From the NCBI GenBank assembly GCA_041649475.1, contig JBAZNA010000001.1, positions 392,612-456,611 of the forward strand: DNA of 64,000 bases. The letters run 5' to 3'. Positions 10,313 through 27,033 of the stretch are shown piece by piece (the first letter of the stretch is position 1; each line of letters begins with the position of its first letter). The translations under genes and the position numbers were made by a program. This DNA is from Patescibacteria group bacterium (GTDB lineage Bacteria > Patescibacteriota > Patescibacteriia > Magasanikbacterales > GWA2-37-8). Under the pieces are notes generated by a model. That model was given only the letters and a program-made list of their open reading frames with translations. It did not search any database and was not told the origin of the DNA.

Positions 10313-11236
10313 ATGTTTTATTTAATCCCATTGGGGGTTTTTCTTATCGGCCTGGGGGTGGTTGTGTTTGTTGTCTTTAAAAAATTCGCGCAGGTTTCCA
10401 ATCTTGATCTGACTAATTTTCAGGAAGAAAAAATATATAAAAAGAAAAGAGAAATCATCAACAGCCGCATTGCCAAAACCAGCGACGTTATTAAAACGCA
10501 GACCATCAGGGTGCTGTCGCCGATTAAAAAAATTTGGGGATTATCACAATTAAAGTTCAGAATTTACGTCGGCAAGATTGAACGTTTGTTGCACCACGAG
10601 CAGGTGCTCAAAACCAAAGCGGAAATAGCCACGCCGCAAGCCAGCGAGGAGCAGGAACAAAAATTAAATCAGTTGATTAATGACGGCGAACAGAATCTGC
10701 AATTGGGAAATTTTGATCAGGCCGAGAATTGTTTTATCACCGCCATTAAAATTAATCCCAAATCAGCGCCGGCTTACCGTGGGTTGGGGGATACCTATCT
10801 GGCCAAAAAATCTTTGGAAGAGGCCAGGCAAACCTACAAATTTTTATTACATCTGGAACCGGATGATGACAGCGTTTTGGTTAAGTTGGCGGAAGTGGCC
10901 GAGAGCCAGGGGGATATTGAAGAAGCGATCGGCTATTATCAGCAGGCGGTTTTGCTAAATGACGCCTTTTCACCGCGGTTTTATCACCTGGCCGAACTGC
11001 TCCTCAAGGTTGATCAGCCCAAGGTGGCCAAAGAGGCGGCGCTTCAAGCGGTGGAACTTGAACCGCAGAACCCGAAGTACCTTGACTTATTGATAGAAAT
11101 TGCTATAATATGCGGCGACAAGGACCTCGCGCTTAAGGCCTTTAATGATCTGCGTCTGGTGAACCCGGATAATCAAAAATTGGACAGCTTTAAGGAGAGG
11201 ATCTCTAAGATTACCGCCGCCTTAGCTCAGCGGTAG
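10313..11236 (+). CDS. TPR-repeat protein with N-terminal transmembrane anchor
   Basis: The start at MFYLIPLGVFLIGLGVVVFVVF precedes a TM helix. Several 34-aa TPR-like repeats follow (AENCFITAIKINPKSAPAYRGLGDTY, AIGYYQQAVLLNDAFSP, ...). The 3' end overlaps tRNA-Thr by about 21 nt. Confidence 0.65.
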   Translation: MFYLIPLGVFLIGLGVVVFVVFKKFAQVSNLDLTNFQEEKIYKKKREIINSRIAKTSDVIKTQTIRVLSPIKKIWGLSQLKFRIYVGKIERLLHHEQVLKTKAEIATPQASEEQEQKLNQLINDGEQNLQLGNFDQAENCFITAIKINPKSAPAYRGLGDTYLAKKSLEEARQTYKFLLHLEPDDDSVLVKLAEVAESQGDIEEAIGYYQQAVLLNDAFSPRFYHLAELLLKVDQPKVAKEAALQAVELEPQNPKYLDLLIEIAIICGDKDLALKAFNDLRLVNPDNQKLDSFKERISKITAALAQR

Positions 11237-11287
11237 AGCAACACTTTTGTAAAGTGAAGGTCCTGGGTTCGAATCCCTGAGGCGGCT
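11216..11287 (+). tRNA. tRNA-Thr(UGU)
   Basis: Manual cloverleaf: acceptor GCCGCCT/AGGCGGC, D-arm GCTC-AGCGGTA-GAGC, anticodon loop TTTGTAA (UGU), T-loop TTCGAAT; one mismatch in each of the anticodon and T stems. Confidence 0.8.
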
Positions 11288-11324
11288 CTTGGTTAGTTAT
11301 TAATTTAATTAAAAATGTAATAAT

Positions 11325-11608
11325 GGGTGGATTTCTGAGCGGTCAAAAGAGACAGACTGTAGTAAAATGCAGCTCTTAAGAGAAATCTTAAGATGAACTC
11401 TCTGGGATAACGGTGAAAGCTAAAACAAGTGTCATGCTAATACCGTGGGAACCCCGAAAAGGTCGGGGAGCGCCGTAGAGACTAGATACCAGAGTGCCTA
11501 AAATCTTAAAAAGATTATGGCAAAGATATAGTCCATGCCTTAAGGAAACTTAGGGGAAAGTGAAATCTGTTGGCTCTGCCTTCGTAGGTTCGAATCCTAC
11601 TCCACCCA
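11325..11608 (+). tRNA. tRNA-Tyr(GUA) interrupted by a ~202-nt intron in the anticodon loop
   Basis: The exons reassemble to GGGTGGATTTCTGAGCGGTCAAAAGAGACAGACTGT|AAATCTGTTGGCTCTGCCTTCGTAGGTTCGAATCCTACTCCACCCA. This is near-identical in architecture to E. coli tRNA-Tyr (anticodon loop CUGUAAA, long variable arm, T-arm GTAGG-TTCGAAT-CCTAC). Confidence 0.8.
11361..11562 (+). ncRNA. Probable group I (IC3-like) self-splicing intron inside tRNA-Tyr
   Basis: A U precedes the 5' splice site and a G ends the intron, the group I rule. Internal GTAGAGACTAGA ... GATATAGTCC are candidate P7 strands; from memory they resemble the Azoarcus tRNA-Ile intron core. GAAA-type loops are present. Length about 202 nt. 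Confidence 0.6.
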
Positions 11609-11690
11609 CTGATATTTGACAATTAGCTTACCTATATGGTGTTAGTTTGCTAAGAGTATATTTTTATGTTAGGATATTTGATGTAAAAAT

Positions 11691-12287
11691 ATGTTGCAAT
11701 TATCAAAAGATAAATTAGCAAAACTCTATTTAGGTAAAGGTCAATCGGCAAAAGAAATTGCTGATGCTTATAAATGTTCCATTAATAAGATTAGATACTG
11801 GATGGAAAAATATGGAATCAAATCAAGATCTATAGGCGAAGCAATTTATCAAAAGAATAATCCTAATGGGGATCCTTTTAAGGTTAAGTATCCGGGTACA
11901 ATAGAAGAAGCAATTTTGTTTGGTTTTGGTCTTGGTTTGTACTGGGGGGAAGGAACAAAAGCTGACAAAGGTTCAGTGAGGTTGGGGAATACCGATCGTG
12001 ATTTGATAAAAAAATTTATTGCGTTTCTGGTTACAGTATTTGGTATTAAAAAGAAAGATTTAAAATTTAGTTTGCAATTATTTAACGATATTGACGAGAC
12101 AGAGGCGGTAGAACATTGGTCAAATTATTTGAAAATTGGAAAAGAGCAATTTTATAAATGTACTATAACAAAGTCGGTGAGAAAAGGTACATATGGCAAG
12201 AAAAGCGAGTATGGAGTTCTAACAGTGTATTATCATAATACGAAAATGAGGAATGCCTTAGTGGCAATATTACAAAAAGAAAAATAG
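11691..12287 (+). CDS. AT-rich ORF with N-terminal HTH and a LAGLIDADG-like motif (candidate free-standing homing endonuclease)
   Basis: GFGLGLYWGEGTK resembles single-motif LAGLIDADG signatures (GL..GEG). The N-terminal segment AKEIADAYKCSINKIRYWMEKYGI looks like an HTH. The ORF lies between two intron-bearing tRNAs and is visibly more AT-rich than its neighbours. Confidence 0.4.
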   Translation: MLQLSKDKLAKLYLGKGQSAKEIADAYKCSINKIRYWMEKYGIKSRSIGEAIYQKNNPNGDPFKVKYPGTIEEAILFGFGLGLYWGEGTKADKGSVRLGNTDRDLIKKFIAFLVTVFGIKKKDLKFSLQLFNDIDETEAVEHWSNYLKIGKEQFYKCTITKSVRKGTYGKKSEYGVLTVYYHNTKMRNALVAILQKEK

Positions 12288-12292
12288 ATAAC

Positions 12293-12559
12293 GCCGTTGT
12301 AGCTCAGTTGGTAGAGCATTTCCATGGTGGTTCGCAAAAACCCCGCCCACTGGCAAGGAAACTTGTCGGTGAATCCCGAATAACGGTTAAAGGCCAGAAA
12401 TGGTTAAGACCGTGGCGAATAAAATCGCCCGAACGACTGACAAGGGGAGTTAAATCCCGACTAAGTCGGGACAAGCTCAAGATACAGTCTAGCCCTCTAA
12501 TAACAAAATAGAGGTGTAAGCGAAGGAAAAGGTCTCGGGTTCAAATCCCGACAACGGCT
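12293..12559 (+). tRNA. tRNA-Thr(GGU) interrupted by a ~194-nt intervening sequence after anticodon position 36
   Basis: Acceptor GCCGTTG/CAACGGC, D-arm GCTCAGTTGGTAGAGC (identical to E. coli thrT), anticodon stem TTTCC/GGAAA, T-arm TCGGG-TTCAAAT-CCCGA. With U-at-minus-1/G-at-end splice sites the mature loop is AUGGUAA, anticodon GGU. Confidence 0.6.
12329..12522 (+). ncRNA. Intervening sequence in tRNA-Thr(GGU), possible group I intron
   Basis: Bounded by the exon halves of a complete tRNA. Contains GAAA/GNRA-like loops and a CCCGACTAAGTCGGG hairpin. Core motifs are less clear than in the Tyr intron. Confidence 0.45.
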
Positions 12560-12605: not shown

Positions 12606-12761
12606 ATGTCGCAAGATAATCTTGTAAAAATGGAGTGCAAGGAGTGCAAACATACAAATTATTTTACCAGCAAAAACAAGAAGACCTTGAAGAACCGCTT
12701 GGAGTTGGAAAAGTTTTGTAAATTTTGCCGGAAACACACCGTGCACAAGGAAACAAAATAG
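12606..12761 (+). CDS. rpmG: Ribosomal protein L33 (51 aa; below the ORF-track length cutoff)
   Basis: Translation [51 protein letters not shown] has the two CxxC zinc-ribbon pairs and the length of L33. Confidence 0.85.
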
Positions 12762-12768
12762 ATAATTA

Positions 12769-12791
12769 TTCCTGCCGGCGCAGGAATTTTT
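12769..12791 (+). terminator. Rho-independent terminator after rpmG
   Basis: TTCCTGC-CGG-CGCAGGAA hairpin followed by TTTTTAT. Confidence 0.6.
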
Positions 12792-18474: not shown

Positions 18475-21400
18475 ATGCTTGTCACTATGGACAACGGAGA
18501 GAGGTATAAAAAATTCTCCAAAATATTAACTGGTGCTTCTTTAATAGTGGGCATATTTATGGCCCTCTATTATTTTGTTTATCCAGTTTTAGCCAATCCG
18601 CCGGGCAGTCCGTACGCGCCGGGCGCAACGCTTGATCCGGGTTGTTCTCCCGGAGATCCGAATTGCACGGTTTATCCACCGCTTACCACCACCCTTACCA
18701 CCTCCACCGCCATAACAATGGGCACGAGCACCTTGAATTTTGGCACCAGCACACTGTTTATAGACGCATACAACACCAGAGTCGGCATTGGCACTGCAAA
18801 CCCGACCTATACCTTGCATGTGGTGGGAAATACAAATTTGGGGGGAGATGTCACCACTACTGGCAATTTATATATTGCCGGAGTTACGAATTTTGGACAG
18901 ACCGTCATTACCAATCTTAATGTCACTTCTGTCACTTCCACCAATCTGTACATTTCAGGCCTGGCTAGTTTTAACACTATTGCCTCGGGCACCTGGGCCG
19001 GCAGTATTATTGCCAATACCCATGGCGGCACCGGACAAAATAGTTCGGGCTGGACAGGGTTTGCCTATGTAAACAATGGCACGTGGACAACTTCTACGAT
19101 AACAACCGGCACCGTTTCCGGTTTGCCTACTTTCAATGCCGGTACTGCAGGATGGATTCCGTATTATGCCGGTGCGACTTCAACACTGACTCCGACCTCG
19201 GCGATTTTTATCGCGGCAGATGGAAAAGTGGGGATAAATTCCACCAGTCCTATAGCGCAGTTCGCCATTAATCAGATGGCAGGCTCTGCCACTGACGCCG
19301 CTTTATTTGATGTTTCTTCTTCTACCGGGGGTAGTATGCTTCATGTTTCGGCGAATGGAAATGTTGGGGTTGGAACGGTGAGTCCGGCGGCAAATTTGTC
19401 AGTTATTTCAAATTTACGTATTTTCCGTCCTGGTTATGAAACAACAGCTTACGCGGAGTTTATAAGAAATCCTACCGGAGGTTTCATTTATTCAAGTAAT
19501 GCTTTATATGTCGGCGGGACAAATACTAAAACTTCGCTTGGCGGTGGTTCAATCGGAGGAATTGTCCAGGGTATATTTAATTCCGCGTCCAACCAGACAG
19601 CGGTGGATATACCAATCACGTTTTCTCCCGGAAGCGGCACGCCTACAGACATCGCTTTAAATATTAATCCGATTATCAATTGGGGTGGAACTCCGGGCGC
19701 GGGTTCGTATGAGGCGCTAAAGATAGCCGTTACAGAAACTTCGCTTCCCACCGGAAATAATTATTTGATAAGAGCTAGCGCGGGTGCGGCCGGAACAACG
19801 GATAGATTTGTAGTGACAAATAATGGTTATGTGGGGATTGGGACATCTTCTCCTGTTGGAGCATTATCTCTCGCCTCTGGTCAGGTGTTTGTTCCGGATG
19901 GAGCGGCAGCTACTCCATCATATTCTTTTGTTGGTGAACAAAATACTGGTTTTTATCGCCCCACGTCCGGATTATTAACGGTAGCTGTAAGGAATGCCCA
20001 GATAGCTGCCTTTAATGGTCAGGCGGGGACGAATTATGGTTTAGTGCTTGGAGGGACAAAATCTCTACAATGGAATGTTGATGATAATCCTGCAACTGGT
20101 TATAATGTTGACACGGCTTTGGCAAGAAGCGCGGTTGGAATGCTTGAAATAAATAATAGTAATTCAGGACAGTATAGAGATTTAATCCTAAGAAATTTGT
20201 TTGCTACAAGTAGTGTTGGCATCAACAGTTCATCTCCTATCGCCAAATTAGGAGTACAAGGTTCTGTAACCAATGGTAGTTTGCCCCTTTTAGACATCGC
20301 CTCTTCCACCGGGACCAGCTTGCTTCGTGTAACATCGGGCGGGAATGTGGGGGTTGGAACGGCGAGTCCTGGGTATAAAATGGATGTTAATTTGGGTTTG
20401 TTTGCCAGTAATGATACGTTTGGATATAACATTTATGGAAATGCAGGAAATGCTGTCGGTTATGCGGGTTATAACTTGCAATTAGATAATACAACAGGAA
20501 ATACTTCCGGTTATGTGAGATTAGCAAGAACACCTAGTACCGCTTACCTAGGGCTGGAAATCGGTTCACAATCACGTGATGGTATAAGGTTTTTAACAAA
20601 TACAATTACACCTGTTGAGGTAATGCGTATAACAAGTGCTGGCAACGTCGGTATCAACACCACCTCTCCCGCTTGGAAATTATCAGTAGCCGGTGATATC
20701 AACACCACCGGCACTTACAGGATAAATGACACACAAATTGCTTTAACTAACTTGGGTGACACTTCGCTTCCTGCACCCGTTGCCAATGACTGTCTAACTT
20801 ATAACGGTTCTTTCTGGGTGGCTGGCGCGTGCACTTCGCTTTCTGCCGGGCAGAGCGTGGACTATTATATTAATGATCAACTGTCGGCTGTTTCCACAAC
20901 TCTTCATTTATTAGAAAGAGCACCAATCACAGCAACCGAAGTGAGTGATGTTGTCAGTGTTCCGGCTGGAACTACGACTACGATTGATGCCTATATTTCG
21001 TCTTCTACGATAGGCGCGACGCAGGTGGATGCCGGAGCTTGGACATTTTCCGTCTTTGCGTCGTCAACCGGAGGAGCGGGACAGCAGACCATTGTGATAG
21101 AGGTCTATACTATTTCTGTTACAGGCACTACTCAATTGTTGTTTAGTGTCAGGACCGCGGATATTACCCAGACCACCCCCACCTTGATTGATGTTGAAAC
21201 AGTCCAGCCGGCTTTTCAGCTTGCTTCTTCAACCGACAGATTGTATGTGATTTTTAAAGGTTCTAACACTGGGGGGACAGCCCGAAATATTGGTTATACC
21301 GAAAATGGCACATCCAGATATACTCATTTTCATACGCCATTATTAACCAGACATAATAATTTAGCAGGAATTCAGGGCGGTTCCACAGCTGATCAGTATT

Positions 21401-24400
21401 ATCATCTCACCGCTGCCGAATACGCGGGCACTGGTTCGGGTATTTTTGTAAAACAAACTTCTCCGACTTTTTTGACTAATATTTCAATTGGCGGTGGCAC
21501 CGCTACCACAACTATCTATGGCAGCGCAACTTCTACCTTTCCGTATGGCGCGACGTTTGCGACTACAGGAGGAAGTGTGGGGATTGGAACATCAACCCCA
21601 ACTATGCCTCTGCATGTTTATTCTTCTACGGCAGGAGTTTGGGGAAACCCCACTAATTTAGCAATTTTGGAGCAAGCTAGTGCTGATGCCAACCCTTTCC
21701 TCGTCTTAAGAAGAACCAACACTGCTTATAATGACAGTGCGGGCGGCGGAATAACCGTACAAGAAGGAAGACCTGATGGCAGTACACTTGCAACTTTGGG
21801 TCAATTAAGGTTTGCTCAAGACGACAACTTTGCCGCAACTCCAAAGACCTCATTTATTTTGAATCTGAACAATGGTAGCGCTTTAACTGAAGTTTTGAGA
21901 GTTAAAGGAAATGGAAGTATTGGGATAAATTCTACTTCTCCTATCGCCAAATTAGGAATACAAGGTTCTGTGACTAACGGCAGTTTGCCGCTTCTAGACA
22001 TCGCCTCTTCCACTGGTTCTAGTTTGCTTCGGGTTTTGGCGAATGGGAATGTAGCTTTGTCTTTGGGGTCATACCTTTGTTTTGATGGAAGCGGCTGTTC
22101 GGCGGGCATAAATTATACCGGAGGAGGAGCTATGCAGTTTAATGGCTCTAACATGATATTCTATAGTAGTAATATTGATGTTCAGGGTAATGCAATTTAT
22201 AACAGTGGTTCTGGAAACGGCGGAGGCATTTATATAAACGATAATGTCGGTATCGGCACCTCCACTCCCGACGCTCGCCTCACGGTTTTGTCCGCCACCA
22301 TCGCTACCTCCTCTAACGCCCTCACAGTTTACAACGCCAGTTCAACAAAACTTTTTAAAATCGCGGACAGTGGAGATGTTTCTTTTGCCAACGACGGCCT
22401 GTATTATGAGGCGTCAAGTTCGGTTTTATACGCAAACAGCATTGAAACCGGCGCGATGAATTTTGATGAAGATGCCGGACAAGTGACATGGGTGAATCTT
22501 CCAATCACCACCACCACAGCCGGGTTGGTTGAAAGTTATAGCGCGCAGGTGGGTGATAATAATATATTAACAGTATACGGTGTAACAGATGGCGCCGGTG
22601 GAGTTTCACAATTACGCGTTGGCATAAATACCAGCACTCCATTATCTGATTTGGATGTATTTGGCAGTATGGTTTTATCCGGCTCAAACAGATATCTAAA
22701 CTTCGGCAATACCACCGGCACCACCGGTTATGGTATTTATGATAATGGGGGAGTCATGCAATTTAAAAATTCAAGTGGCGCGTGGACAAATATTTCCACT
22801 TCAACTGTTGCCTATGGCACAGCCGGGTATATTCCATATTATGCGACAACCGGTAATGCACTTACCGCCACTTCGGCTGTGTTTATCAAAACAGATGGAA
22901 AAGTGGGGATTGGGACGACTTCTCCCAGTGCGAAGTTACAGATTACTCCAAATGCTAATACTACCGTTGGATTGATTGTGCAGGGAGACAATAATCAAAC
23001 TGCAGATATTCAGCAATGGCAAACCAGTACTGGTACACTCCTGGCGTCAATCATAGGTTCCGGATCTTATCAGGGCGGCTGGCTTTTTTATGGGCTAAAT
23101 AATTATATAGATGCTTCTAATTACTCTAGGTTAAGGATATCACCTAATGGTAATGAATACCGTTTAATTACTGAATCTGCGGGGAGTGGTACCGCGAGAG
23201 ATTTAAGTTTGGTAGCAGACACAGGAAGGGCTCTATACTTTGGTGCTAATGGGACAGCTTATCAAGCATACCTAAACGCTCTTGGTAATTTTATTGTTAA
23301 TGGCGGAAAACTCGGTGTTAGTACCAGTACCCCAATCGCAAAATTAGGAGTGCAAGGTCTAGCCACTGAAGGCAGCTTGCCATTGTTAGACATCGCCTCT
23401 TCCACTGGCTCCAGTTTACTGCGAGTAACATCAGGAGGAAATGTGGGGATTGGGACGGCGAGTCCGGATACGACATTACACGTAAATGGAAATATAACAT
23501 TAGGAACAGGATCAAGTTCAAACGATCATCTTATATTTAACTACATTTCAGGGTTGGGAGAAGATTACGCAAGAATTAGGTTGGGAGCTAGTGGATACGA
23601 GCGTGTGAAATTAAGTCTTGGCATTGATCCTTTGGCTACCGGGCGTGGTCTTTTCAAAATAAGTACGGGTGATGGGGGGTCAGCTCCCACTGAAAGATTT
23701 AGAATAACCCCGAGTGGCTATATTGGTATAAATAGTTCTACACCAATGGCTCAGCTCGCCGTTCAGGGGTATGCTACTTCCACTCCTCTTTTAGACATCG
23801 CCTCTTCCACTGGCTCCAGTTTACTGCGAGTAACATCAGGAGGAAATGTGGGGATTGGAACGGAGAGTCCTTATGCACCCCTTCAAGTGGGAGCAGGCAT
23901 ACCATTGTATTCCACCGGACAACTTGATGTGTGGCAAGCAAGTAAGCCGGTCACTAGTATTGGTAATGTGAATATTTATTCAAATGATTCTGCGACAATA
24001 AACACTGGTGGGAGTATTGGTTTTGGTGGAGCCAATGGGAGTAACACGTATGTCTTTGGAAAAGTAGCCGGGCGTTTAGAAAATGCATCAGGTTATGCTG
24101 GCTATCTTCAATTTTCAACAACTCTTGCTAGTTCTGAAATTTCGGAAAAAATGAGGATAACAAGTGCTGGTAACGTCGGCATCGGCACCACCAGCCCTTA
24201 CGCCCGACTAAGCATAACGAGCGCCGGTATAACCAGTTCCACCCTCGCTTTTGCAGTTGACAATGCCAGTTCCACTCAACTGATGAGGATAGATGACGCC
24301 GGCAACATTTCTATGGGCGGGGATGGTTTTTATTACGACGCTTCAACCACTGTTTCGCATCTAAACGCCGAGTTTGGCAGTATGAGTTTTGACGAGGATG

Positions 24401-27033
24401 CGGGCATTGTCTCGTGGATAAATTTGCCGTTCGTTTCCACCACCATACCGCAAGGCACAATAATGTCTTATTCAGCGCAAATTAACAATACAGATATTTT
24501 AACAATTTATGGCGAGACCAACGGCTCGGGCGGTTTGCAGAATCCGCGGGTGGGTGTTGGCACCACCACGCCAAATGCAAAGCTTACTATTTATAGTGAT
24601 ACTATAGCCACTTCCTCTAATGCTCTCACCGTTTATAACACTTCCTCCACGCGGTTGTTAAAAGTTGCCGACAGTGGAGATATTAGTTTTGGAAATGCCG
24701 ATGGTTTGTATTATGAGGCCTCAAGTTCGGTTACATATGTAAACAGTTTGCAAACCGGCCCGCAGAGTTTTGACGAGGACGCGGGCATAGTTTCATGGAT
24801 CAATTTACCGATTACCACTACCACGGCCGGAATAGTGAACAGCTACAGCGCTCAAATTGCCAGTAATGATATTTTGACAATTTACGGTGAGACCGATGGA
24901 AGCGGAGGTATATTAAATACAAAAGTCGGTATCAACAGCAACACTCCGATGGCAACTTTGGCAGTGCAGGGTTACGCCAGCAGTTTGCCAATTTTTGACG
25001 TGGCTTCTTCAAGCGGTGCCAGCTTCTTGAGGGTCCTAGCGAATGGAAAAGTGGGGATTGGGACAACGACACCGAGGAATCCATTGGATGTGCGTGCAGT
25101 CGGGGGAACTGAAGAAGTTTTGAGAATTGGTGGTGGAAGTACGAACGATACTTATGGTTTCGGCGTGGGAGGTGGGTCACACGCGGCTGGAGGATATTTT
25201 GGCTTGTGGCATTTTAGCGCTACTACCAATGATTGGGATACAAACGTATTTTTAGTAACTCCAACAGGTGATTTTTATCCACAGCACAATATACAAATTG
25301 CTCCTCCCAGTGGATATACAAATGGAAACAATTTGGGATTATTTCCACAAACAGACGCCACACTAGAAAATGCCGTCTTGAAGTTATACGGTGCAAATGC
25401 ATTGCAGTTTGATGTGCGACCGTACACAGGTACTTGGGGAACGCAAGTTACTGCTATGTATATAAATGGTGTTGGCAACGTTGGCATCGCTACCACCACA
25501 CCTTTAGCTAGACTTACTATTGCCGGCGCTACCATCGCCACTTCCTCCAATGCTCTCACTGTCTATAACGCTTCAACCACCCGTTTATTTAAAGTTGCCG
25601 ATTCCGGTGACATCTCCATGGGTTCTGCGGACGGCTTCTACTATGAGGCATCCACCAGTATTTCATATGTCAATTCTCTACAAACCGGTGGCTTAAATTT
25701 TGATGATAATGCCGGTCTGGTAAGCTGGGTGGATATGACCATTGATAACAATGCTACCACTGGCACACCGGAAGGATACACTGCCTCGCTCAACGGCAAT
25801 CCGATGATACTTGTCTATGGCGACAGCGTCGGTGACGGCACAGTCACCAATATGACTGTCTCCATTGGCACCAGCACCACCAGCACTTACAAGCTATATA
25901 TAGACGCGGGTGGAAGCGCCAATGCTGGTTTAGGTGTCAACGGTTATATCAAATCATCCGGGTTTATCGCCGGCACCACCACTTTGGACTTGGCCGAAAC
26001 CTACCCGCTTGATCCGAATTGTTCGGCTCTTGGAAATTGTCCGGCAGTGGGCGATGTGGTTTGCGCGAACGAGAAAAATGTTAATATACAAATTCCGGAT
26101 CCGTCCAACCCATCTTCAACCATTGATACCGTAAACACTTTGTTTGTCATAGAAAAATGTTCAGCCACTTCAACCGACAACGCGATTGGTGTGGTTTCCG
26201 CCAATCCGGGCTTTGTCCTCGGTGGCTATGACTTGAACGATACTTTGAAATCCAAAAATCCGGGTTTGTATCCGTCAACTTATCAGCCGGTGGCCTTGTC
26301 CGGACGCGTGCCGGTTAATGTTTCACTGGAAAACGGTCCGATTAAAGCAGGGGACTTGCTTACTTCATCTGTCCAGCCGGGCGTGGCTGTGAAAGCGGTT
26401 GAACCGGGTCGTGTGATCGGTGTGGCTTTGGAATCTGCCAGCGCCACCAGCTCTGTGCCGACAATAAAAATGTTTGTCAACCCGCATTGGTCAGTTGGAT
26501 CGCTCACCGAAGAACAGATCAGTAACGAATTGCCTGACTTCAGTGTACAAGGAATATTAGACAGCTTCACTGTGGCTGTGGAAAATAGTTTACGGAAATT
26601 GGGAATGCTGTTAAAGAATGGCGTAGCCACAGTCAAACAATTATTTGCCGATAAAGTGCAGACCAATCAACTGTGCGTTGGCGCTACTTGCGTAAACGAA
26701 CAGCAATTGCAGGATTTATTAAACAAAACAAATACCCAGCCGGCCGCACCCGTGATTGAGACCCCGACAACAACTGAACCACCAGCTAGTACAACAACCC
26801 CTGTCGTTGAGACCCCGACAACAACCCCGCCAGTCACCGAACCTGTCGCGCCGGTCGTTGAGACCCCTCCGACTACAGAACCGGCTCCGCCAACAGAAGT
26901 AACTCCGCCACCGACCGAAGTAACTCCGCCACCAGCGGAACCAGCTCCAGTTGTGGTTGAACCCGCTCCAGCACCAGAACCTGCTCCTACTCCAGCCCCG
27001 GCCCCAGCTGATACCGGAACAGTAACTCCATAG
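18475..27033 (+). CDS. Giant (2852 aa) repetitive Thr/Gly/Ser-rich surface protein with N-terminal TM anchor and Pro/Thr/Glu-rich C-terminal tail
   Basis: A single uninterrupted ORF. N-terminal TM helix (ILTGASLIVGIFMALYYFVY). Dozens of GNVG[IV]GT.SP-type motifs. About five copies of a ...SSSPIAKLGVQGSVTNGSLPLLDIASSTGSSLLRVTSGGNVGIGT... module and about four copies of an ~100-aa ATIATSSNALTVYNASST...FDEDAGIVSWINLPITTTTAG... module. C-terminal Cys-containing domain, then a PTTTEPP.../APAPEPAPTPAP low-complexity tail. Confidence 0.7.
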   Translation: MLVTMDNGERYKKFSKILTGASLIVGIFMALYYFVYPVLANPPGSPYAPGATLDPGCSPGDPNCTVYPPLTTTLTTSTAITMGTSTLNFGTSTLFIDAYNTRVGIGTANPTYTLHVVGNTNLGGDVTTTGNLYIAGVTNFGQTVITNLNVTSVTSTNLYISGLASFNTIASGTWAGSIIANTHGGTGQNSSGWTGFAYVNNGTWTTSTITTGTVSGLPTFNAGTAGWIPYYAGATSTLTPTSAIFIAADGKVGINSTSPIAQFAINQMAGSATDAALFDVSSSTGGSMLHVSANGNVGVGTVSPAANLSVISNLRIFRPGYETTAYAEFIRNPTGGFIYSSNALYVGGTNTKTSLGGGSIGGIVQGIFNSASNQTAVDIPITFSPGSGTPTDIALNINPIINWGGTPGAGSYEALKIAVTETSLPTGNNYLIRASAGAAGTTDRFVVTNNGYVGIGTSSPVGALSLASGQVFVPDGAAATPSYSFVGEQNTGFYRPTSGLLTVAVRNAQIAAFNGQAGTNYGLVLGGTKSLQWNVDDNPATGYNVDTALARSAVGMLEINNSNSGQYRDLILRNLFATSSVGINSSSPIAKLGVQGSVTNGSLPLLDIASSTGTSLLRVTSGGNVGVGTASPGYKMDVNLGLFASNDTFGYNIYGNAGNAVGYAGYNLQLDNTTGNTSGYVRLARTPSTAYLGLEIGSQSRDGIRFLTNTITPVEVMRITSAGNVGINTTSPAWKLSVAGDINTTGTYRINDTQIALTNLGDTSLPAPVANDCLTYNGSFWVAGACTSLSAGQSVDYYINDQLSAVSTTLHLLERAPITATEVSDVVSVPAGTTTTIDAYISSSTIGATQVDAGAWTFSVFASSTGGAGQQTIVIEVYTISVTGTTQLLFSVRTADITQTTPTLIDVETVQPAFQLASSTDRLYVIFKGSNTGGTARNIGYTENGTSRYTHFHTPLLTRHNNLAGIQGGSTADQYYHLTAAEYAGTGSGIFVKQTSPTFLTNISIGGGTATTTIYGSATSTFPYGATFATTGGSVGIGTSTPTMPLHVYSSTAGVWGNPTNLAILEQASADANPFLVLRRTNTAYNDSAGGGITVQEGRPDGSTLATLGQLRFAQDDNFAATPKTSFILNLNNGSALTEVLRVKGNGSIGINSTSPIAKLGIQGSVTNGSLPLLDIASSTGSSLLRVLANGNVALSLGSYLCFDGSGCSAGINYTGGGAMQFNGSNMIFYSSNIDVQGNAIYNSGSGNGGGIYINDNVGIGTSTPDARLTVLSATIATSSNALTVYNASSTKLFKIADSGDVSFANDGLYYEASSSVLYANSIETGAMNFDEDAGQVTWVNLPITTTTAGLVESYSAQVGDNNILTVYGVTDGAGGVSQLRVGINTSTPLSDLDVFGSMVLSGSNRYLNFGNTTGTTGYGIYDNGGVMQFKNSSGAWTNISTSTVAYGTAGYIPYYATTGNALTATSAVFIKTDGKVGIGTTSPSAKLQITPNANTTVGLIVQGDNNQTADIQQWQTSTGTLLASIIGSGSYQGGWLFYGLNNYIDASNYSRLRISPNGNEYRLITESAGSGTARDLSLVADTGRALYFGANGTAYQAYLNALGNFIVNGGKLGVSTSTPIAKLGVQGLATEGSLPLLDIASSTGSSLLRVTSGGNVGIGTASPDTTLHVNGNITLGTGSSSNDHLIFNYISGLGEDYARIRLGASGYERVKLSLGIDPLATGRGLFKISTGDGGSAPTERFRITPSGYIGINSSTPMAQLAVQGYATSTPLLDIASSTGSSLLRVTSGGNVGIGTESPYAPLQVGAGIPLYSTGQLDVWQASKPVTSIGNVNIYSNDSATINTGGSIGFGGANGSNTYVFGKVAGRLENASGYAGYLQFSTTLASSEISEKMRITSAGNVGIGTTSPYARLSITSAGITSSTLAFAVDNASSTQLMRIDDAGNISMGGDGFYYDASTTVSHLNAEFGSMSFDEDAGIVSWINLPFVSTTIPQGTIMSYSAQINNTDILTIYGETNGSGGLQNPRVGVGTTTPNAKLTIYSDTIATSSNALTVYNTSSTRLLKVADSGDISFGNADGLYYEASSSVTYVNSLQTGPQSFDEDAGIVSWINLPITTTTAGIVNSYSAQIASNDILTIYGETDGSGGILNTKVGINSNTPMATLAVQGYASSLPIFDVASSSGASFLRVLANGKVGIGTTTPRNPLDVRAVGGTEEVLRIGGGSTNDTYGFGVGGGSHAAGGYFGLWHFSATTNDWDTNVFLVTPTGDFYPQHNIQIAPPSGYTNGNNLGLFPQTDATLENAVLKLYGANALQFDVRPYTGTWGTQVTAMYINGVGNVGIATTTPLARLTIAGATIATSSNALTVYNASTTRLFKVADSGDISMGSADGFYYEASTSISYVNSLQTGGLNFDDNAGLVSWVDMTIDNNATTGTPEGYTASLNGNPMILVYGDSVGDGTVTNMTVSIGTSTTSTYKLYIDAGGSANAGLGVNGYIKSSGFIAGTTTLDLAETYPLDPNCSALGNCPAVGDVVCANEKNVNIQIPDPSNPSSTIDTVNTLFVIEKCSATSTDNAIGVVSANPGFVLGGYDLNDTLKSKNPGLYPSTYQPVALSGRVPVNVSLENGPIKAGDLLTSSVQPGVAVKAVEPGRVIGVALESASATSSVPTIKMFVNPHWSVGSLTEEQISNELPDFSVQGILDSFTVAVENSLRKLGMLLKNGVATVKQLFADKVQTNQLCVGATCVNEQQLQDLLNKTNTQPAAPVIETPTTTEPPASTTTPVVETPTTTPPVTEPVAPVVETPPTTEPAPPTEVTPPPTEVTPPPAEPAPVVVEPAPAPEPAPTPAPAPADTGTVTP

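Follow-up and report, generated by a model that had tools for sequence, protein, structure and literature searches.

A group I intron in the anticodon loop of a tRNA-Tyr(GUA) gene from a Magasanikbacteria-like bacterium

The DNA analyzed here, referred to in the following as the window, is a 64-kb stretch (64,000 nt) of contig JBAZNA010000001.1 from a Patescibacteria group bacterium (GenBank assembly GCA_041649475.1). It contains a cluster of tRNA genes, tRNA-Thr(UGU), tRNA-Tyr(GUA) and tRNA-Thr(GGU), in which the tRNA-Tyr gene is interrupted within its anticodon by a group I intron that carries no open reading frame (ORF). The intron starts with the letters AGUAAAAUGCAG and ends with GGGGAAAGUG. 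The CCA end of the tRNA is not encoded. The coordinates of the gene, of the intron helices and of the neighboring features are listed in Table 1.

Table 1. Features of the split tRNA-Tyr(GUA) locus, in window coordinates; counts of pairs and sequences refer to the alignment of 68 introns described in the text.
Feature	Position	Strand	Remarks
tRNA-Thr(UGU)	11216–11288	+	36 nt upstream of tRNA-Tyr; found by default ARAGORN and Rfam
tRNA-Tyr(GUA) exon 1	11325–11360	+	36 nt, ends ...GACUGU; acceptor 5' strand, D arm, anticodon stem 5' strand, C32 U33 G34 U35
P1	11357–11360 / 11369–11372	+	exon CUGU with internal guide GCAG; 4/4 pairs invariant in 68/68
Group I intron	11361–11562	+	202 nt, ORF-less, between anticodon positions 35 and 36
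P2 hairpin	11374–11381 / 11386–11393	+	GAAA tetraloop 11382–11385; two-sided changes in 8/8 pairs
P3 5' strand	11400–11405	+	partner 11489–11494; compensatory changes in 5/6 pairs, 100% of cells paired
P4	11410–11415 / 11441–11446	+	encloses P5; double changes in 2 pairs
P5	11419–11420 / 11436–11437	+	G-C to C-G swap in 14 sequences
P6	11447–11448 / 11473–11474	+	pairs invariant
P6a	11452–11456 / 11464–11468	+	compensatory changes in 5/5 pairs
P7 5' strand	11480–11484	+	GACUA, pairs with UAGUC 11529–11533; guanosine-binding helix
P3 3' strand	11489–11494	+	CCAGAG, abuts P8
P8 hairpin	11495–11498 / 11519–11522	+	compensatory changes in 3/4 pairs
J8/7 and P7 3' strand	11525–11534	+	GAUAUAGUCC
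P9 hairpin	11538–11544 / 11549–11555	+	GAAA tetraloop 11545–11548; compensatory changes in 6/7 pairs
Terminal guanosine (omega-G)	11562	+	G forced by the search pattern in homologues
tRNA-Tyr(GUA) exon 2	11563–11608	+	46 nt, begins AAAUCUG; A36 A37 A38, anticodon stem 3' strand, long variable arm, T arm, acceptor 3' strand, discriminator A73 at 11608
198-aa free-standing ORF	11691–12287	+	83 nt after tRNA-Tyr, 5 nt before tRNA-Thr(GGU)
Split tRNA-Thr(GGU)	12293–12559	+	exon 1 12293–12328 (...CCAUGGU), exon 2 12523–12559
tRNA-Thr(GGU) intron	12329–12522	+	194 nt, after U36, ends in G
rpmG (ribosomal protein L33)	12606–12761		51 aa; between split tRNA-Thr(GGU) and tRNA-Trp
tRNA-Trp	12794		beyond rpmG

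The tRNA-Tyr gene was reported neither by ARAGORN with default settings nor by the Rfam tRNA model. An earlier note on this DNA, written from the sequence alone, had placed a tRNA-Tyr(GUA) here, split at 35/36 by 202 nt, and had proposed the intron mode of ARAGORN and Rfam's model for group I introns as checks. The coordinates were exact: ARAGORN in intron mode called tRNA-Tyr(gta) i(37,202) at 11325–11609. The Rfam model RF00028 matched 11350–11555 over its full extent (positions 1–253) with 55.1 bits, where the gathering score is 50, and with E = 3e-11 over the 64-kb window. As the note had also observed, the insert is preceded by a U (U35) and has G as its last base (G11562), and the two strings that it quoted were located, at 11475 (GTAGAGACTAGA) and 11525 (GATATAGTCC). 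The observation is thus confirmed, far beyond what chance would give. When the exons were joined in silico, ARAGORN recognized an 83-nt class II tRNA-Tyr(GUA) with a canonical cloverleaf, the textbook molecule that the note had described, having the GUA anticodon in a CUGUAAA loop, the long class II variable arm and the discriminator A73 of a bacterial tRNA-Tyr. The further remark that the exons resemble E. coli tyrU almost base for base was overstated, since blastn gave only 76–78% identity between the spliced exons and E. coli tRNA-Tyr genes. The same search found matches in all 5426 of 5426 E. coli genomes (median, three places per genome), and the best matches listed were all on annotated tRNA-Tyr genes. 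No second tRNA-Tyr was found within the 64-kb window by ARAGORN in default or intron mode.

Homologues were collected by scanning 185,579 GTDB species genomes with a pattern made of the core motifs and the junction G|AAATC. Ninety-three loci were returned, and 67 of these gave an ARAGORN tRNA-Tyr(GUA) once the segment CTGT|...G|AAATC was removed, with intron lengths of 182–237 nt. Since loci with any deviation in the core motifs would escape this pattern, the count of 67 is a minimum. By their titles, the 67 loci belong to Saccharibacteria (12), Magasanikbacteria (9), Moranbacteria (9), "Patescibacteria group" (9), Peri- or Peregrinibacteria (5), Doudnabacteria (4) and other names of the Candidate Phyla Radiation (CPR) (8), so that at least 56 of the 67 carry Patescibacteria or CPR titles; the remaining 11 have proteobacterial titles. 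At least 5 of these 11 (L009, L046, L078, L083 and L090, titled "TPA_asm: uncultured Gammaproteobacteria/Bdellovibrionales") have the synteny of Magasanikbacteria. In the window, the genes upstream of the tRNA cluster encode a class II aminoacyl-tRNA synthetase (aaRS), an M16 peptidase, triosephosphate isomerase (TIM) and a tetratricopeptide repeat (TPR) protein, and they are syntenic with those of several Candidatus Magasanikbacteria metagenome-assembled genomes (MAGs), whose aaRS is 80–84% identical to that of the window. A protein encoded nearby has an identical copy on a 633,560-bp contig of ENA assembly ERZ27247363, and NCBI lists the ORF downstream of tRNA-Tyr under the name "Patescibacteria group bacterium". 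Four of the five proteobacterial-titled loci (L009, L078, L090 and, partly covered, L046) match the window aaRS at 80–87% identity. Since all five share the aaRS-M16-TIM-TPR-tRNA synteny with Magasanikbacteria MAGs, their proteobacterial titles are probably wrong. The intron is present in all relatives with the synteny aaRS-M16-TIM-TPR-tRNAThr-tRNATyr, which fits vertical inheritance within that clade.

In Acidobacteriota, the same pattern also matched group I introns that interrupt tRNA genes other than tRNA-Tyr (loci titled Acidobacteriota, Pyrinomonadaceae or Blastocatellia: L006, L022, L026, L032, L037, L051, L062, L064, L074, L087 and L088). At some of them ARAGORN called SeC(tca) or Stop(tta) with i(39-40); these are probably boundary mis-calls, and the genes are perhaps tRNA-Leu(UAA). 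Other matches were tRNA-Arg(UCU) introns in MAGs of Chromatiales, Parasphingorhabdus and Saprospiraceae.

The window intron and its 67 homologues were aligned, and helices P1–P9, including the P3/P7 pseudoknot, were drawn from the window sequence (Table 1). Standard pairs filled 96.1% of the 3328 cells, compared with 35–45% when the partners were slid by 1–3 columns. Changes on both sides occurred in 30 of the 49 pairs, the number of compensatory cells was 477 against 62–113 in the slid controls, and none of 500 column shuffles matched any of the observed measures. The signal rests on P2, P3, P4, P5, P6a, P8 and P9; the pairs of P1, P6 and P7 never vary. Compensatory changes across 68 sequences are strong evidence that the ribozyme fold is kept by selection, and argue against a dead remnant. 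The alignment, with its strong covariation, could also seed a better model.

Within this fold, P1 pairs the end of exon 1 with the internal guide. The terminal CUGU of the exon is invariant in all 68 sequences, and so is the U35 (U11360)·G11369 wobble that marks the 5' splice site, which lay outside the search pattern. P7 forms a pseudoknot with P3 and matches the conserved core of RF00028. P8 carries CCUAAA (11497–11502) and UAUGG (11516–11520), while P5 carries GCUAAA and CAUGC; on inspection, both motifs look receptor-like, resembling the 11-nucleotide tetraloop receptor. The 3' strand of P3 directly abuts P8, leaving no room for P7.1 or P7.2.

Among the tRNA genes of bacteria, group I introns are classically found in tRNA-Leu(UAA) at 34/35, tRNA-fMet at 33/34, and tRNA-Ile(CAU) and tRNA-Arg(CCU) at 36/37; a preprint by Williams (2020) gives a list grown to 21 settings. 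The cyanobacterial and plastid tRNA-Leu(UAA) introns (34/35) and those of tRNA-fMet and tRNA-Arg are similar to the window intron in being self-splicing, in following a U in the anticodon loop and in mostly lacking an ORF, but they interrupt other tRNAs at other positions. The earlier note did not recognize tRNA-Tyr 35/36 as a known site, a view that is out of date: Nakagawa, Amikura, Omae and Suzuki (mSystems, January 2026, PMC13011429; preprint July 2025, 10.1101/2025.07.03.662931) described 35/36 as a site enriched in Patescibacteria, and their Table 1 lists a tRNA-Tyr(GUA) 35/36 intron in Doudnabacteria GCA_016699995.1. They demonstrated self-splicing in vitro for 35/36 introns of tRNA-Asn and tRNA-Asp (PMC13011429). 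The Doudnabacteria intron has the same tRNA, site, phylum and CUGU/GCAG P1 as the window intron, lacks an ORF, is of similar length (192 vs. 202 nt) and is likewise mis-called by ARAGORN as a result of a 2-nt boundary ambiguity; it differs in its class-level lineage, the window being Magasanikbacteria-like. The two introns are 72% identical over 182 aligned positions. Against the published Asn and Asp 35/36 introns, which also use the CUGU/GCAG pairing, identity was 53–66%. Because Nakagawa et al. already describe a tRNA-Tyr 35/36 intron, the window intron is, as judged from these comparisons, a fresh example of the published kind, a new member showing the same phenomenon. Their survey, which was limited to complete genomes, records a single tRNA-Tyr case among 95 Patescibacteria genomes (PMC13011429); with the present survey the number rises to 67 species or more, from many classes of the CPR.

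The subgroup assignment is less straightforward. By inspection, the layout of the window intron appears IC3-like, as the earlier note had suggested: P2 and P9 end in GAAA tetraloops, P8 and P5 contain receptor-like motifs, and P3' abuts P8. The group I intron in pre-tRNA-Ile(CAU) of Azoarcus sp. BH72, reportedly described by Reinhold-Hurek and Shub in 1992, belongs to subgroup IC3. It is similar in size (≈200 nt), in its location after a U in the anticodon loop and in its core string GUAGAGACUAGA, and also in having GAAA on P2 and P9, receptor-like P8 and P5, no P5abc and no P7.1/P7.2; it differs in interrupting tRNA-Ile at 36/37 rather than tRNA-Tyr at 35/36, and in coming from another phylum. 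According to GISSD, as quoted in Williams (2020), the four classical types are all IC3. With subgroup covariance models, however, 25 of 28 introns at 35/36 were classified as IA and no Patescibacteria tRNA intron as IC (PMC13011429). The apparent IC3-like layout of the window intron is therefore in discrepancy with the published IA-type classification.

From the exon and intron anatomy, the Rfam match, the homology to published 35/36 introns and the conservation of the fold, all directly observed, we consider it very probable that a Magasanikbacteria-like CPR bacterium has here a functional tRNA-Tyr(GUA) gene, split between U35 and A36 by a small 202-nt ORF-less group I ribozyme. To judge by its sequence, removal of the intron almost certainly supplies the cell with its tRNA-Tyr, and we infer that this RNA splices itself, without the help of protein. 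The precursor would be transcribed, probably jointly with the neighboring tRNA genes, and the intron would fold into its P1–P9 core, in which the guide GCAG pairs with C32–U35 and exposes U35·G as the 5' splice site. An external guanosine held in P7 would then attack after U35. G11562 would next occupy the guanosine-binding site, and the free 3'-OH of U35 would attack after G11562, joining GACUGU to AAAUCUG and restoring the CUGUAAA anticodon loop. These two transesterification steps are established group I chemistry. Since the guide GCAG fits the CUGU common to all G34-U35 tRNAs, it would offer a simple explanation for the presence of one intron lineage in several tRNAs.

Some points weigh against this interpretation. 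P10 comprises 1–2 bp at best, and the published splicing assays were made with the Asn and Asp introns rather than with a tRNA-Tyr intron. The search for another tRNA-Tyr spanned the 64-kb window, and an intact copy may lie elsewhere on the 633-kb contig or in the genome. The search pattern itself prescribed the motifs TAGAGACTA, GATATAGTCC and G|AAATC, which makes the invariance of these motifs, of P7 and of omega-G among the homologues circular and uninformative. Moreover, if the boundary is shifted by 2 nt, an option that the earlier note did not mention, so that 11359–11560 is excised, the U/G rule is still obeyed and the product is read by ARAGORN as tRNA-Ser(tga). The gene would then be a class II tRNA-Ser(UGA) with its intron at 33/34. 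At ≈25 of the 67 homologous loci ARAGORN indeed called Ser(tga) i(35,n), and a like 2-nt ambiguity affects Asn/Thr and Asp/Ala in Nakagawa et al. (PMC13011429). However, the wobble expected at a 5' splice site is formed by U11360 with G11369, invariant in 68/68, whereas U11358 would make a Watson–Crick pair with A11371, and the last base of the shifted intron is a G in only 41 of the 68 homologues. The best E. coli matches listed for the exon body are all tRNA-Tyr genes. The discriminator at 11608 is an A, the identity base of bacterial tRNA-Tyr; bacterial tRNA-Ser has G73 and tRNA-Tyr has A73. On these grounds the tRNA-Ser(UGA) assignment was rejected, and we regard it as very unlikely. In intron mode, ARAGORN also called a few of the 67 split tRNA-Tyr loci Asp, His or Ser(gga) and missed about 8; its mis-calls are due to the 2-nt boundary ambiguity.

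It is similarly hard to credit that the intron is a decayed remnant that no longer splices and that the gene is a pseudogene. The Rfam score exceeds its threshold by only 5 bits, and default ARAGORN and standard annotation both miss the gene. Nevertheless, the window sequence retains every core helix intact, and their pairing is kept by compensatory changes in 67 other species, which requires selection on the RNA fold. The window holds no other tRNA-Tyr, and the exons, 72–94% identical to those of the relatives, fold as a canonical tRNA. A different proposal concerns not the gene but the way it is spliced: a protein helper might be needed, with the LAGLIDADG-fold ORF that follows the gene (11691–12287), or the paralogue found beside tRNA-Tyr in other genomes (Tyr-type, see below), acting as a maturase instead of, or besides, an endonuclease. 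In fungal mitochondria, LAGLIDADG proteins do serve as maturases for group I introns, and LAGLIDADG-fold ORFs adjoin split tRNA genes in the window and in many of its relatives. Yet the window and 31 of the 67 related loci have the tRNA-Tyr intron with no adjoining Tyr-type ORF, the window-type ORF also adjoins intact tRNA-Thr(GGU) genes (26 loci), and related 35/36 introns self-splice in vitro in the absence of protein (PMC13011429). A need for such a helper thus appears unlikely. A functional tRNA-Tyr(GUA) gene with a self-splicing intron remains the reading we prefer.

Further downstream, the cluster contains a second split gene. When the parts of tRNA-Thr(GGU) were spliced in silico at 36/37, they gave tRNA-Thr(ggt). 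Default ARAGORN and Rfam both missed this gene, ARAGORN in intron mode mis-called it as Arg(gcg) i(35,194), with a shift of 2 nt, and the Rfam model RF00028 found no match in its intron even at E ≤ 10. Table 1 of Nakagawa et al. lists "divergent group I introns" of tRNA-Thr(GGU) at 36/37 in Patescibacteria (PMC13011429), to which this intron corresponds. The rpmG gene that follows falls below the 70-aa minimum of the ORF listing. A promoter-like site close to the consensus, at 11082–11109 (TTGACT-16-TATAAT with an upstream TG), lies ≈107 nt before tRNA-Thr(UGU), and a terminator-like hairpin with a T-run lies at 12768–12787, after rpmG. The two signals, both consensus matches only, could bound one transcription unit comprising tRNA-Thr, the split tRNA-Tyr, the ORF, the split tRNA-Thr and rpmG. 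Elsewhere, the window contains a very large ORF at 18475–27033 on the + strand, encoding 2852 aa.

The free-standing ORF between the two split genes encodes an N-terminal helix-turn-helix (HTH) and a single putative LAGLIDADG-fold domain with the motif GLGLYWGEG at residues 80–88, of which G86-E87-G88 are invariant in an alignment of 41 members of its family. No Pfam match exceeded its threshold (LAGLIDADG_3 scored 17.4 bits against a cut-off of 22.5, E = 0.0055), and LAGLIDADG_3 matched only 8 of the 41 family members at E ≤ 0.1. Neither Foldseek nor a hidden Markov model (HMM) search of PDB sequences gave a significant LAGLIDADG match. The comparison values were 8.1 for a homing-endonuclease-associated intein, 6.5 and 5.7 for WhiA, 6.2 for I-DmoI, 5.8 for I-Tsp061I, 5.7 for I-CeuI, 5.5 for I-Vdi141I, 5.0 for I-CreI and 4.7 for I-MsoI. 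We regard the product as a free-standing single-motif LAGLIDADG-fold protein with putative nuclease activity.

Homologues of this ORF were found by tblastn beside 34 of the 67 split tRNA-Tyr genes, which made it a candidate partner of the tRNA-Tyr intron. Its genomic context was taken from 80 metagenome loci for which similarity of the protein was the sole criterion. There the window-type ORF ends 0–30 nt, occasionally up to ≈150 nt, before tRNA-Thr(GGU); this gene is split in 43 of the loci, 26 have it intact, and the upstream tRNA-Tyr, where present, is intact in 31 loci of the set. Because the subfamily abuts tRNA-Thr(GGU) and mostly follows a tRNA-Tyr without an intron, a partnership of the window ORF with the tRNA-Tyr intron was rejected. 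The ORFs located upstream of tRNA-Tyr form a separate subfamily, here called Tyr-type, related to the window type at 27% identity (hhalign probability 99.9%, E = 1.4e-32) and sharing with it the motif YxGEGxK. The family has more than 1100 plus 489 homologues, the 489 being Tyr-type, and where the listed matches carry names these are only "hypothetical" or "helix-turn-helix".

Tyr-type ORFs were seen at L083:3697–4305 and at about 45 other loci (e.g. L176–L194). Of the 67 GTDB loci, at least 36 have one 5–65 nt upstream of their split tRNA-Tyr. In a set retrieved from a list of homologues by exact protein identity, blind to introns, the tRNA-Tyr downstream of the ORF was split in 10 of 10 loci, whereas no Tyr-type ORF preceded any of 25 intact tRNA-Tyr genes with enough flanking sequence (Fisher p = 3.5e-7, for samples that are not phylogenetically independent). 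In the 64-kb window no Tyr-type ORF was found by tblastn, and the gap between tRNA-Thr(UGU) and tRNA-Tyr is just 36 nt. The association of the ORF with split tRNA-Tyr genes suggests that free-standing homing endonucleases mobilize these introns.

A precedent exists in collaborative, or trans, homing, for which a review (PMC3984707) presents the T4 mobE/I-TevIII case, F-CphI with the intron in psbA of cyanophage S-PM2 (Zeng, Bonocora and Shub 2009) and, more generally, free-standing endonucleases with phage psbA and nrdB introns. The strict co-occurrence of Tyr-type ORF and intron in related genomes resembles the phage systems. The differences are that the CPR host is a cellular bacterium, the interrupted gene a tRNA and the protein LAGLIDADG-fold, and that the window lacks a Tyr-type ORF, its own ORF being of the tRNA-Thr(GGU) subfamily, which occurs also beside intact genes. 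For the CPR ORFs, cleavage and target site are putative.

We tentatively propose, as a possibility rather than a probability, that the tRNA-Tyr intron is one half of a composite mobile element widespread in CPR, the other half being an unannotated family of genes for free-standing single-motif HTH-LAGLIDADG endonucleases. These genes would be inserted directly 5' of members of the Thr(UGU)-Tyr-Thr(GGU) tRNA cluster, and their products would cut the palindromic anticodon-arm DNA of alleles without an intron. The anticodon-arm DNA appears to be a natural pseudo-palindrome centered beside the insertion site, which would suit a homodimeric LAGLIDADG enzyme. In the donor genome the intron would split the target site and so protect it from its own endonuclease, and repair would copy the intron into the cut allele, with or without the endonuclease gene. 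The tRNA-Tyr of the window would then represent a late stage, in which the intron is kept and the endonuclease gene is gone, and its tRNA-Thr(GGU) an earlier stage, with an endonuclease-like ORF and a divergent intron.

The tRNA-Tyr intron itself matters mainly for annotation. Split genes that are missed, or mis-called as tRNA-Ser(UGA) or, for the neighbor, as Arg(GCG), make genomes seem to be without tRNA-Tyr or tRNA-Thr(GGU), and for CPR genomes annotation pipelines will report too few tRNA-Tyr genes. The neighborhood is the more interesting lead: its unexpected parts, beyond the coordinates given in the earlier note, are another interrupted tRNA gene and an unannotated gene family, with a probable LAGLIDADG fold, that is linked to split tRNA genes. 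We found no description of free-standing LAGLIDADG genes beside CPR tRNA genes in the literature searched. Nakagawa et al. looked for endonucleases inside the introns only and, from their absence, inferred little mobility (PMC13011429); the composite element, if real, would contradict this published low mobility of Patescibacteria tRNA introns. If the proteins are active homing endonucleases, the group I introns of CPR tRNA genes would be mobile by trans homing, which would explain the abundance of introns in these very small genomes.

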